This document shows, in pieces, positions 2,545-6,800 of a stretch of DNA of 21,416 bases (position 1 is its first letter; each line of letters begins with the position of its first letter). Origin of the DNA: a virus (Duplodnaviria > Heunggongvirae > Uroviricota > Caudoviricetes); IMG/VR virus record IMGVR_UViG_2579778894_000023, positions 1 to 21,416 of that record; one strand, written 5' to 3'. The position numbers were made by a program, and so were the translations under genes. The notes under the pieces were generated by a model, which saw only the letters and a list, made by a program, of their open reading frames with translations, did not search any database and had not been told where the DNA came from.

Positions 2545-2607
2545 TGTCTTTTCTCTCATAAAATAAAGTTTTGTTATGGCGGTGAGGCTACACCGCCATA
2601 GTAAATA

Positions 2608-3660
2608 TCAGGAGCCGATATATTCTGGTTTCATATCTGTCAGTGTCGTTTTATACGCCTCATATAATTCTCCCAGATGTGGTCGTGCAGCATTCAGCGT
2701 ATTTTCCAGAGCAATAAATTTTTGTTCTGCTTCTGGATCACCTGATGAAGGCAGGTCATTTATCATCGTCTCAATACGGGCAATAGCATTGAGACGGTGA
2801 TGACGCTGAACCACTTTTCCTTTAAGTTCTGTGTAGAGAGCGCCAAGTGTATTTTTATGATCTTCCACTTCCTGGCGAAGTGATGTTGTTTCTCCGGTGC
2901 TTTGTGCCTGCTCAATACGTTCACGGAAAGCACTGATCCAGTTTTCCCCGGCATCCTGCTCAATAATTGTTGTTTCACGTTCCGCACGGCAGGCGGATGT
3001 ATTTTTATGTTCCTGAACCGGATTAATGATTTTTTCCTGTGGTTCGTCCAGTTCGTCCCGGGTGTGCACTCCAAGAATCACTTCAGGGCAATAAAGGCGC
3101 GCCCAGCGTTTCAGTGCCAGATAGGCAAGCTGCTGGCGAGGATCATCGGCCCATAACGTTGAGTTACGTGTTCTGGCCTGTGCCAGAAGTAACTCCAGTA
3201 CGCGTGGCTTGCTCTCTCCGCGTAGTGTTGCCTGGACGCGAACTCCGATCCCGTTTTCATCGGCCAGCTTCCAGCTAGGTACACGATATTCTTTCCCCTT
3301 GTCGTTCTTCCTGATTTCAAATTTCCCGATAATTTTTTCCCACGGCCCGAACCAGTCATATTCAATACGCCCGGTTAGCGGCCCACGAGTACTGATTACG
3401 GCATTAACCAGTTGCGCTTCATATCCGAGCATACCATTCACAACGAAAGTTTTCTGAGCTACTGCGTAAGGGTTCATTTGCCACTGCATCGCCTGCATGG
3501 TGATGGCCATGCAGTCTGATGGATTTCCCCGGAGGTGTTCCGGTACAGTAGCCATGCCGGAAGCCATTACCTGGGAAAATGTCTGAATTGCAGCCAGGGA
3601 CTGAGGGCTGAAAACCGCAACATTAGAGTTAATATTTTCTTGTTGAGTTAATTCGTTCAT
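2608..3660 (-). CDS. Phage single-strand annealing protein, RecT-family-like recombinase
   Basis: 350 aa immediately downstream of the RecE-like exonuclease (stop/start 12 nt apart, SD GAGGAAGG). The segment LAYLALKRWARLYCPEV resembles the conserved RecT helix (AIRRLFKYLP). Family call rests on synteny plus this motif. Confidence 0.6.
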   Translation of the reverse strand: MNELTQQENINSNVAVFSPQSLAAIQTFSQVMASGMATVPEHLRGNPSDCMAITMQAMQWQMNPYAVAQKTFVVNGMLGYEAQLVNAVISTRGPLTGRIEYDWFGPWEKIIGKFEIRKNDKGKEYRVPSWKLADENGIGVRVQATLRGESKPRVLELLLAQARTRNSTLWADDPRQQLAYLALKRWARLYCPEVILGVHTRDELDEPQEKIINPVQEHKNTSACRAERETTIIEQDAGENWISAFRERIEQAQSTGETTSLRQEVEDHKNTLGALYTELKGKVVQRHHRLNAIARIETMINDLPSSGDPEAEQKFIALENTLNAARPHLGELYEAYKTTLTDMKPEYIGS

Positions 3661-3671
3661 TGTGTCCTTCC

Positions 3672-6600
3672 TCAGATGCTCAGTGCTTCAAGACGACGAA
3701 GATCAAAGTCGTTTAATTCGTCGGTATAACTTTCGGTAATCGGTGCTGGCCAGTTGTTTGTCTCCAGAGCTTCGTTTATCTGTCGTAGTGTCCGGCGATA
3801 TTCCTGTCGACCAAGTTCCAGGAGTTCCTGCGAGGCTTCCACGACGGCCACCCAGTGATAGCCAGCATCTTTGTTGACGAAGATCCAGAAAAATTTGTCC
3901 AGGTTTGCCACATCGCAATACATTGCTGCGCTGAGGTGATAATCACGTTCAATAATTTCACGGTGCAGGCGATCTTTCAGTCGTTCCTGTCGCACATAAC
4001 CGAGGCTGACTGACTTCACGTCGGCGCAAATGCTTTCGTATGGCAGCCGGATTTCGATATCAGGACGGACCCTGATTTCCAGCCCGGTTTCTTCATCAAA
4101 CCCGAAATAGCTGATTTCAGATTTGCGATCCGGGTGGTTGAGTAGCCTTGCTGCATCAGTATTGTTTTGCAGTGCTGCGTGAATATTTTTTGCCTGTTCA
4201 TACATATCCGGACTGATAAACGTTTTCCCGGCGTTTTCTTCTTGCTGGCGTTTTTGCCAGTCCTCCAGTGTTACCAGTTCCGGGCGAATTTTCCGGGCGA
4301 TTTCGGTTAATTGCTCTTTTGTGCCACTGATGTTGTAAGGCAAAGATTTAGCACGTTCTTTTTTTGCCAGTTCTGGATCTACAGTTTCAATTTGCTCCAG
4401 GAGCTGCTCTCGTGTTCCACTGGCTTTCAGCAGAGGAGGGAGGCTTGCGTTGTATTCTTTAATACAGGCTTTCATTGCTGATGCTGTGTGTTTTTCCCCC
4501 TCAGGAATACGCCGGAATTCCTCCGGAAGCGAACCGTAAAGGATGCCTGTTTCTTCGGCCCCGGCACTTACCGACAGTGGCTGTATAAGAGTGCTGTTGT
4601 AGCTTTCGATCCACTCTTTCATCTGCTCTGGTGTCATCAGTGCTGGCAGACTGGCATTGTGTTTTTTAATGATGGCGATCAGTTCGTTAGAAGTAGTAAC
4701 CACATATTCAGGAACCGGTACCGGGATGGCATACTCATCAGCGAATTTATCCGTTTCCAGAACATAGCTGTGAATAATCCGCCCACGCAGCAATGCATCA
4801 CTTTCCTCGCCCGGAATAGTTCCGGCAATGTGCCGTCCGTGGTAATACATCAGGCTGATGCGGGCATCCTTCAGCATTGTGCTGCTTATTCCGTTGGCGG
4901 AGTGATAAACCTCGTTCGGGAGGTTTTCATAGCGGCCAGGCTCGAAATATGACGGCCACATGATTTCAGTTACTACAGGTGCTGTCGTTTCACCAGCTTC
5001 ATCACTGCAATCGCAATGCGGATTGCTGCCAGCGTTCTCCTTGTGCGGATGTTCAGCACCTTCCATTTCCTCCAGACCTTTTTCCTGATATTCATTCTGA
5101 TTTTCTTCATTAAAGGTTTTCTGATACGTTGCGTCGCCCATCACCGCGCCACAGTCAGGACAGTTGCCGCCGCCAGCCTTACCGCAGGCGGTGCAAACTT
5201 TCTCCGTTTCCTGTTGTTGCACTACTGGCTCAGGCTGTTTCGTTTCTGGCTCGTTTTGTTGCGTATTTGGGTCGTTCTGTTCCGTTTCTGGCTGATTCTG
5301 GTACACAGAATCGCGGGTCTGGATCCCCTTAACCCATTTCGGATCATTCGGGTCGCTAATCCCTTCAACAAATTCTCCGCGAGAGGCAGCCAGTAATTTG
5401 TCTGCATCGACAGGATTTTTGGGCGGAATGTTTTTCCGGGCTTCATAGAGTTCTGCCCGCAGTTTCTGATATTTCGCATCAACAGAATTTACCTGTGACT
5501 GAGCATCCAGCGGCTGCGTGTCCTGATGATGTTCAGTTGCATCCGGTTCCACTGTTTCAGCCGTTGCCTGTTCATCTGCCATTGCGCAAGATGGTTGCAG
5601 TTTTTCTTCATCATCCTGTTTTTCTTCTTCTGTTACACGCTGCGGCATCGGGGCAGAGGAACGACCGCAGGCAATATCCACGATTTCTTGATCAGGGGTG
5701 GCATGATCAGTTTCAGTCAGTACTTTGTTAAGATATTCAGTGACGTGTGCGGGGATAACCTCGATCCCAATTGGTGCTTCTTTTACGGACGCAACCACGA
5801 TGGCGCGGGAATAATCCAGCCCGCCAGGCATGGTGATGAATTTGTCGCGGAAAACAGAAAAGGGCGGTTTATTTTCAGCGATAATTTCCTCGACACGTTT
5901 AGCGTGTGCCGGATGAAGGTTATAAATGTCCACGTCCATTGAACGAGCCAGTACGCCAGTGGCTACGTCGCGCGCCAGTGACGTCAGATCGTGAACGAAA
6001 CCTTCGCCGCGATCGGTGAGGTTCCCGCCGCCAGCATTAGCGCCGGAAGCCGTGCGCGTGATGCGTGAAACACGATTTCCTTTCATCCACTCTTTTGTCA
6101 GCAGACCGCGATCGGTGTAGTCTGCGTCCAGGTATGCTTCGAAAAAAGCAGTCATCAGCCCCAGGCTTGAATTGCCTGGATTAGGGAAAACTCTGTCAGT
6201 ATCACGCACCAGTTTGTGGAGATCGCGAATTTCCAACGGGTCGAGCAGGCTGGTTTTGTGGGAAACAGCCAGGGCAGTAACAGCTGGTAGTTCTTCAGCT
6301 CGTGCAATGTGTAATGCCTGTAGTCCGTCGCGTGAAACGTGCGTTACCGGTTTTTCGCTGCCGTGTTGAGCAAGCCAGCGAATGGGCAGCTCCTGACCGG
6401 AAATCGGGAGTAGCATATTCTCCTCAATCTCCGTCATGTCTTCGCCATTAACATTGGTATTGTCAGTGCTGGCTGGTTTGTCCTGCGCAGAGGATGAGGG
6501 CGCGATAAATACCATTGTGATGCCATCTTCCCCGCCTTTTTCGTAACGGTTGCAGAATTCCGTATCAAATACGCCTTCTGGTGGAAGGTCATCAACAACG

Positions 6601-6800
6601 GGCAAGTTGACGCGAACAGGTTTTTTAAAGTCATCTTCATCGTAGCCAGCATCGTCAATCGCAACAGCACCACGGGAGATGGCAATGGATAATTTTTTCG
6701 CTTCAGCCCAGTAGAAACCGCCTTTAATACCGAGACGTTTTCTTACTTTGTCATTTTTTGCTTCGTAATACAGTGGGTAAACTTGTTTATCGGTGCTCAT
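3672..6800 (-). CDS. recE: Exodeoxyribonuclease VIII (RecE-like), 1042 aa, with an extra repeat-containing insertion in the nuclease domain
   Basis: The N-terminal two thirds align with recalled E. coli RecE ([24 protein letters not shown]..., [16 protein letters not shown] zinc ribbon). The C-terminal PD-(D/E)xK region (IRVRPD...DVK) is diverged and carries a ~150-aa insertion. Confidence 0.9.

Follow-up and report, generated by a model that had tools for sequence, protein, structure and literature searches.

What role might be played by some 140 additional residues within the nuclease domain of a RecE-type exonuclease? This question is raised by the recE gene of a Caudoviricetes sequence (IMG/VR record IMGVR_UViG_2579778894_000023, positions 1 to 21,416), the whole 21,416-nucleotide stretch of which is referred to here as the window. 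An initial annotation, made from the sequence alone, had described the gene product as a RecE-like exonuclease with an extra segment of about 150 residues that contains three degenerate, possibly DNA-binding repeats. The bases concerned (4239-4709, minus strand) correspond to RecE residues 698-854 in the translation of the open reading frame (ORF) 3672-6800. In the present analysis the segment was recognized as an array of repeats, predicted to be helical, which expands a loop at the rim of the nuclease channel. The favoured reading, which is given about an even chance of being correct, is that in a RecE-type ring exonuclease the rim which captures DNA has been enlarged and given structure by a duplicated SAP/HeH-like array, with the repeats R2 and R3 as the likely DNA-contacting units.

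Expansion of the rim loop within the nuclease domain

The assignment to the RecE-like exonucleases was confirmed by sequence as well as by predicted structure. The Pfam families PF06630 (Exonuc_VIII; residues 52-189, E = 4.5e-38, 131.6 bits against a cut-off of 25) and PF12684 (DUF3799, a PD-(D/E)XK family; residues 855-1019, E = 3.9e-13, 50-54 bits against a cut-off of 26) both match the protein, and 3H4R, the nuclease domain of K-12 RecE, was the only PDB match returned by phmmer (E = 7.8e-6). The same entry ranked first when the AlphaFold2 model of the whole domain was searched with Foldseek (E = 3.4e-10, probability 1.0), followed by the PD-(D/E)XK proteins MGME1, Cas4, lambda Exo and AddAB/RecB. 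The residues H677, D914, D927 and K929, which align to H652, D748, D759 and K761 of K-12 RecE, are invariant in a 36-sequence alignment, and the catalytic residues of the window protein are intact. It is classified as a member of the RecE/exonuclease VIII family with predicted activity.

In the phmmer comparison with 3H4R the alignment is split, residues 630 to about 700 being paired with K-12 residues 606 to about 676 and residues 893-1023 with 727-854. BLASTP against K-12 RecE and a MAFFT alignment agree with this split. With the loop boundaries anchored on H677=H652, E682=E657, F686=F661 and G858-K-T=G693-K-T, the net gain between the anchors amounts to about 140 residues. Accordingly, both the approximate size of the proposed insertion and its position between the first conserved block, a helix, and the RVRPD...DVK catalytic block were upheld. 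The opposite view, that there is no real feature at all but ordinary RecE sequence, an alignment artefact or low complexity, is already refuted and retains next to no probability. It could draw on a BLASTP high-scoring segment pair of low identity in which a portion of R1 is aligned with the loop and helix of K-12 RecE, as local alignments can hide a gap. Nevertheless, the 140-residue length difference lies between unambiguous anchors, the repeats are statistically significant, the structure of the insert is predicted at high confidence and its conservation extends to more than 50 species. The region is not of low complexity, and no other domain family, e.g., an intein or a homing-endonuclease domain, was found in the insert by a Pfam scan.

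In K-12 RecE, the corresponding loop (residues 665-698) was described as projecting from the channel rim and is presumed to capture double-stranded DNA (dsDNA); the rim loops are disordered as long as no DNA is present and become ordered in part when it is, and in crystals of RecE the DNA could not be seen (PMC11611040). The structure 3H4R comprises 219 modelled residues of a 265-residue chain, and the unmodelled residues are consistent with a disordered K-12 loop, i.e., the very segment that is expanded in the window protein.

Repeat units and their predicted structure

Comparison of R1 with R2 gave a Smith-Waterman score of 64 against a shuffle mean of 19.6 +/- 4.2 (z = 10.7), and that of R2 with R3 a score of 53 against 20.2 +/- 4.2 (z = 7.8); in both cases 0 of 2000 shuffles scored as high. 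The direct Smith-Waterman comparison of R1 with R3 was not significant against shuffles. An iterated repeat profile found a fourth unit, R1b, whose first helix is at the same time the second helix of R1. The array is therefore composed of three full units and one overlapping unit, each of about 35 residues, so that the repeats noticed at first sight are real but number four, not three. The register initially chosen for the third copy was shifted, and the better register does not pair 'YNIS' with 'YNAS'. In the alignment of the repeat units an N is invariant, and a G and an L are present in at least 90% of the units. At the DNA level, a repeat of 27 nucleotides occurs three times (4449, 4596 and 4656; 67-70% identity) over the helix-1 and Tyr-Asn codons of R2, R1b and R1.

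Residues 615-1042 were modelled by AlphaFold2 from the 36-sequence alignment with a mean predicted local distance difference test (pLDDT) of 92.4, a predicted template modelling score (pTM) of 0.70 and no low-confidence segments. In this model the insert is formed by eight helices, arranged as a helix of about 14 residues, an extended loop of 6-11 residues and a further helix of about 11-13 residues. The same secondary structure was obtained when the insert was modelled alone (pLDDT 89), and the earlier expectation of a helical segment is thereby supported.

It had also been proposed that these helices might be HeH/SAP-like. What stands of this proposal is the predicted architecture, since units of about 35 residues are formed by helix, extended loop and helix, the second helix opening with a Gly turn and a basic residue; the profile matches, by contrast, all remained below threshold. 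With the whole insert as Pfam query, Ish1 (an HeH family) reached E = 0.025 and SAP_new25 E = 0.062 (13.4 bits against a cut-off of 26.3). Among 25 diverse single repeat units, SAP (PF02037) was the Pfam family matched most (5 of 25, best E = 0.0022), and SAP_new25 was matched by three. Searching PDB sequences with the repeat profile returned the SAP domain of MKL1 (2KVU, E = 0.28; 'SLPVSGTKTELIERLRA'), with spurious WH2 matches ranking higher. WH2 is a eukaryotic actin-binding motif. Although the WH2 of N-WASP topped this search, the identity was rejected, as only 11-13 residues align, by a coincidence in helix 2. An hhalign comparison with a small SAP profile, built of six sequences entered by hand, gave a probability of 29% (P = 5.8e-4) compared to 0.5% (P = 0.11) for the reversed-sequence control; in this alignment the first helices coincide, the S-G-x-K/R turn of the repeats is matched with the G-x-K turn of SAP, and the loop of the repeats exceeds that of SAP by about six residues. 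These results are suggestive of SAP/HeH-like repeat units, which are not assigned here as SAP domains.

Conservation of the array and its proposed role in DNA capture

Mean identity to the window protein over 54 homologues was 62% for R2, 58% for the C-terminal catalytic block, 41% for R1 and 33% for R3, and the residues N715, N735, N784, K792, R797 and G826 do not vary even among homologues of only about 27-29% identity. In comparison with two E. coli alleles with unsaturated synonymous divergence, the ratio of non-synonymous to synonymous substitution rates (dN/dS) amounted to 0.15-0.20 for the insert, based on small counts of 5 non-synonymous and 7-9 synonymous differences, to 0.27-0.29 for the N-terminal 600 residues and to 0.01-0.03 for the catalytic C-terminal block. 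The insert is under purifying selection. As to charge, the loops of R2 and R3 are net basic with conserved basic residues, and the loop of one-copy variants is lysine-rich ('NADKPKAEQLKLTGKKEE'). The idea of the insert as a basic DNA clamp by net charge was discarded, as it is acidic overall and only the R2 and R3 loops are basic.

These values also bear on the possibility that the array has no specific ligand and acts as a structural spacer or as a steric gate, its expansion being tolerated at a permissive surface loop. Such a device might widen or shield the channel mouth, e.g., to exclude non-end DNA or host nucleases. In line with this, R1 and R3 are the least conserved units, the K-12 nuclease core works without any insert, and the site is a hot spot at which two unrelated repeat types occur in 0 to about 6 copies while the conserved nuclease blocks are kept. 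However, R2 is conserved like the catalytic core, the six residues named above are invariant among distant homologues, the dN/dS of the insert is low and the four-unit form is kept across dozens of Enterobacterales species. A spacer without ligand is considered unlikely.

According to the favoured reading of a DNA-capturing array, the repeats would have arisen by tandem in-register duplication of the rim loop, which in the toroidal tetramer of K-12 RecE stands out from the rim at the entry side of the duplex DNA. In R2, R3 and the one-copy unit, the conserved Lys/Arg residues and the S-G-T/S turn with which helix 2 begins would most likely contact the DNA backbone, with the acidic R1 and R1b most likely acting as scaffold or spacer. 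If a tetramer is formed as in K-12 RecE, four arrays would constitute a structured collar around the channel mouth, which would catch the end of the dsDNA and keep it in place as its 5' strand passes to an active site. We infer DNA binding by the array mainly from the location of the insert, which is that of the K-12 rim loop.

Several points weigh against a DNA-capturing array. The net charge of the insert is -5 in the window protein and on average -8.7 over the homologues, the whole domain being acidic too, and R1 and R1b are devoid of basic loop residues. No SAP/HeH match exceeded a curated or conventional threshold in the Pfam, PDB-profile or hhalign comparisons, the last of which relied on the SAP profile of six hand-entered sequences. 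Moreover, the pTM of 0.70 despite the high pLDDT suggests a flexible attachment of the array in the model, which is that of a monomer.

Copy number, distribution and origin of the array

The DNA of the insert was found in 192 of 5426 complete E. coli genomes, 4706 of which have some similarity to recE, and also in phage Rac-SA53. The nuclease domain is 52% identical (100% coverage) to Salmonella proteins named 'Gifsy-1 prophage RecE', with which all repeat units align. A scan of one genome per species, biased to relatives of the query, revealed 76 loci, with the four-unit form distributed across dozens of Enterobacterales species; the genera include Salmonella, Citrobacter, Enterobacter, Kluyvera, Klebsiella, Serratia, Proteus, Morganella, Pectobacterium and Erwinia. 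In addition, 3515 relatives were obtained by a HMMER search against the whole library. The searchable literature yielded no account of such an array, whether in Gifsy RecE or elsewhere, and the enzyme type is already known as Gifsy recET (PMC3121763, PMC12315714). RecE with this array thus represents a common form, apparently not described before, of a well-known enzyme of recombination.

Among these relatives and the loci, the spacing between the G..H helix and the RPD strand takes discrete values of 98 (no unit), 143-144 (one unit), 191 (two units) and 242 residues (three to four units), the shortest being that of K-12 RecE and most of the stand-alone DUF3799 proteins of roughly 280 residues. 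Five to six repeat-profile matches each were detected in three further proteins (P0129, P0159 and P0162). All junctions between copy-number forms are in register, at equivalent repeat positions: in the one-copy form the S-L-P loop is the point at which the head of R1 passes into the tail of R3, and in the two-copy form R1 is merged with R1b and R2 with R3. Such junctions are the expected outcome of unequal recombination between repeats. Since the profile comparison detects the second half of the repeat unit in zero-copy proteins too, with 'NAGKEEEKAFLME' at that position in K-12 RecE, the array looks like an elaboration of the native loop and helix rather than an imported domain.

Some candidates for repeat-free relatives were rejected. 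In two close relatives (L058 and L059) masked runs of N break the frame, and four proteins (P0155, P0161, P0167 and P0168) are not accepted as natural zero-copy forms, as they look truncated or deletion-derived with part of the nuclease domain missing. Viral contigs queried with the zero-copy relative P0174 yielded loci with 1 or 4 copies and no others. Decayed recE copies of the window type were observed as well, in E. coli ETEC1718 (L097) and among the four proteins just named: one is truncated beside an IS100/IS21 element, and others show apparent in-frame deletions that join the N-terminal region to the RVRPD strand. A separate observation concerns PP818812.1, named 'Actinobacillus phage vB_Apl-pPE4', which carries the E. 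coli-type recE of the window with about 95% nucleotide identity over 78% of the gene. This is unexpected for a phage of Pasteurellaceae and may reflect a misassigned host or contamination.

At the same site, members of a sister clade (P0165, P0173, P0179, P0183, P0187 and P0191) contain a different repeat of about 22 residues, 'KPTxxQxxxYxxWxxxGxPEP', in 1.5 to about 6 copies. Two repeat types at one site mark the rim loop as a hot spot for repeat expansion. Generalizing from this, the rim loop of RecE-type toroidal exonucleases might be an evolutionary 'expansion slot', where short helical DNA-binding repeats, SAP-like in the window clade and of the 'KPTxxQ..Y..W..G.PEP' type in the sister clade, are duplicated or deleted in register and thereby tune the capture and retention of duplex ends by the ring; this generalization is tentative and somewhat doubtful. 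If true, the copy number (0 to about 6) would represent a natural dial for processivity or end tethering, and the ordered array of the Gifsy/window type would make the elusive RecE-DNA complex structurally tractable.

Mosaic structure of recE and its RecT partner

The recE gene of the window is a mosaic. Nucleotide identity to K-12 Rac amounts to 89.7% over positions 4989-6462 (RecE residues about 113-604), is undetectable over positions 2566-4988, which comprise the nuclease domain and recT, and is back to 93.7% over positions 2119-2565. Likewise, BLASTP showed about 90% identity to the K-12 RecE protein for residues 118-600 and about 29% for the nuclease domain. The junction near residue 604/605 falls where the crystallised nuclease domain of K-12 RecE begins (residue 606). 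Because nuclease domain and annealase both lack nucleotide similarity to K-12 between flanks of 90-94% identity, they have been swapped as one cassette, cut at the domain boundary. An exchange of this kind fits the partner specificity of RecE-RecT pairing reported by Muyrers 2000 (cited in PMC11611040).

The annealase gene starts 11 nucleotides downstream of recE on the same strand, and its product has no BLAST similarity to K-12 RecT. By their sequences, both partners belong to the Salmonella Gifsy-1 type, and the suspicion of a variant RecET pair proved justified. The annealase is indeed longer than K-12 RecT, as had been remarked; its extra length is a C-terminal tail of about 140 residues, which tracks the clade of the nuclease and not the number of repeats. 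For this tail neither a Pfam match nor similarity to any solved PDB chain was found. Practically all full-length annealases encoded after a repeat-bearing nuclease of the window RecE clade carry it (more than 60 genome loci and 10 viral loci), even with a K-12-like RecT core (L025-27, L084-88), and it is absent beside distant zero-copy nucleases (L073-78). Beside nucleases with 1, 2 or 4 copies, its length and sequence type are the same. A relation between RecT length or type and repeat number was rejected on these grounds, all of these nucleases being accompanied by tailed RecTs of 345-386 residues. A distant nuclease retrieved with the repeat-bearing profile (P0271, 427 residues, stand-alone) is followed not by RecT but by a 'Gp3-like' protein (PF18897) of 418 residues without the RecT tail (metagenome contigs L080/L081, 5298-6554). 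As a side observation, this Gp3-like protein ends in the acidic motif 'DGDDGEVF', which is reminiscent of SSB C-termini.

The distribution of the tail is relevant for a further explanation, according to which the array is a protein-docking platform and not a DNA binder, its partner being the cognate RecT tail (comparable to the C-terminal domain (CTD) of Red-beta on lambda Exo), the SSB of the host or some other factor of phage or host. The consistent presence of the tail beside repeat-bearing nucleases of the clade, K-12-like cores included, its absence beside distant repeat-free ones, the net acidic insert and the partner specificity mentioned above would agree with docking. HeH-type folds are also able to mediate protein contacts, e.g., LEM-BAF. 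Still, the tail is unchanged with 1, 2 or 4 copies and follows the nuclease clade rather than the array, and P0271 is combined with a tail-less partner. Furthermore, the lambda annealase docks on the exit face of the 3' single-stranded DNA, whereas the rim loop lies on the dsDNA-entry side (PMC11611040). A docking function of the array is considered rather unlikely. The RecT tail is probably a nuclease-docking adaptor comparable to the Red-beta CTD, and nothing links it specifically to the repeat array.

Genomic context

The window is part of an E. coli Rac-like prophage. In E. coli strain PEC41, a gene with 99.5% identity is annotated as 'recE: exodeoxyribonuclease VIII' and has xisR, ralR, a RecT-family recombinase gene, kilR and ydaT-like genes as neighbours. 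Pfam matches to neighbouring ORFs of the window comprise an integrase, an excisionase, DUF1187, an HTH repressor, YdaT and replication genes. The left end (positions 1-2118) is unlike the closest E. coli Rac-type prophage, which is located at ttcA (L002), and the genes present there (Table 1) imply a different integration module or site. In the linker preceding the nuclease domain, a CxxC-x9-CxxC motif (RecE residues 536-553; positions 5142-5195, minus strand) is conserved with K-12 RecE and may form a zinc ribbon.

Table 1. Features of recE, its repeat array, the adjacent annealase gene and the left end of the window.
Feature	Position	Strand	Remarks and basis
recE	3672..6800	-	1042 aa, mosaic exodeoxyribonuclease VIII; ORF, translation, Pfam
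Rac-like N-terminal region, residues 1-604	4989..6800	-	nucleotide and protein identity to K-12 Rac recE
Gifsy-type PD-(D/E)XK nuclease domain, residues 605-1042	3675..4988	-	52% to Gifsy-1 RecE; AlphaFold2; Foldseek 3H4R
H677	4770..4772	-	= K-12 H652, active site; invariant alignment column, BLASTP, codon checked
Catalytic D914 ... D927-V-K929 (PD...DxK)	4014..4061	-	= K-12 D748, D759, K761; invariant columns, BLASTP, codons checked
Expanded rim loop, residues 690-863 (174 aa)	4212..4733	-	= K-12 RecE 665-698 (34 aa); alignment anchors
Repeat R1, residues 704-736	4593..4691	-	profile E = 3.6e-11; AlphaFold2 helices at model residues 90-103, 110-122
Overlapping unit R1b, residues 724-756	4533..4631	-	profile E = 5e-6; D1 DNA copy 4596-4622; AlphaFold2 helices at model residues 110-122, 134-142
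Linker with conserved LPxEFQRI motif, residues 757-772	4485..4532	-	conservation in 54 homologues
Repeat R2, residues 773-812, most conserved unit	4365..4484	-	profile E = 4.8e-19; loop net basic
Repeat R3, residues 813-846	4263..4364	-	R2-R3 z = 7.8; profile E = 5.6e-7; basic loop
RecT-family annealase, 350 aa	2608..3660	-	PF03837 E = 6.7e-41 (residues 30-209); PHROG 561 E = 1e-142
RecT C-terminal tail, residues 206-350	2611..3045	-	inherited with the nuclease clade
DUF2511 gene	1-342
Lambda-type integrase	735-1811
Exc-family excisionase	1777-2064

Significance and comparison with known systems

RecE/RecT is one of the two workhorse systems of recombineering. Contact between the ring of RecE and a DNA end has yet to be visualised (PMC11611040), and a variant with a folded and conserved loop would be a better target for a RecE-DNA structure. 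The natural variants with 0, 1, 2, 4 or 6 copies provide a set for testing the role of the rim module in end capture and processivity, and the array modules may serve as parts for engineering recombineering exonucleases. Moreover, the mosaic indicates that nuclease domain and annealase move as one cassette and that the RecT tail travels with the nuclease type, a pattern which corresponds to the 'shuffling of partner interaction domains' left unanalysed in PMC12315714. If the array were only a spacer, the finding would be a domain-architecture footnote to a well-annotated gene.

Compared with SAP/HeH motifs (SAF-A, Ku70, MKL1, Ydc2 and the N-terminal domain of Rho), the units share the length of about 35 residues, the succession of amphipathic helix, extended loop and second helix, and the opening of helix 2 by a Gly-containing turn with a basic residue (S-G-T-K/R-x-x-L-x-x-x-I/L); weak matches recur at the levels of sequence and structure. 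SAP motifs are often appended to DNA-repair enzymes. In contrast to them, the units of the array have the longer loop, cap helix 1 with a conserved Tyr/Phe-Asn and are chained by shared helices inside a catalytic domain instead of at a terminus; the array is acidic overall, and membership in the family is not established, as no match passes a threshold.

Lambda Exo with the CTD of Red-beta (6M9K), a toroidal 5'-3' exonuclease with an annealase that has a partner-specific C-terminal domain, resembles the window pair, whose nuclease is predicted to be of the same kind, and the window RecT tail likewise travels with its nuclease type in evolution. However, lambda Exo is a trimer without rim-loop repeats, and the RecT tail has no detectable similarity to any solved chain.

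With RecE of the K-12 Rac prophage (3H4R), the window protein has in common the N-terminal 600 residues at about 90% identity, the PD-(D/E)XK fold, for which 3H4R is the top structural match, and the catalytic His, Asp, Asp and Lys; in both cases an annealase gene follows downstream in the same kind of prophage early-left operon. The systems differ in the nuclease domain (about 29% identity), in the rim loop, where 34 disordered residues in K-12 RecE face a 174-residue segment with a predicted helical repeat array, and in the RecT, which in the window belongs to another subfamily with an additional C-terminal tail of about 140 residues.

With RecE-RecT of Gifsy-1 and Gifsy-2, the window pair shares 52% identity over the whole length of the nuclease domain, all repeat units and the same type of RecT. 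Recombination defects are reportedly suppressed by Gifsy recET orthologues after mutational activation (recB suppressor mutations; PMC3121763). The difference lies in the N-terminal region, which in the window protein is of the Rac K-12 type and hence makes it a Rac/Gifsy mosaic.

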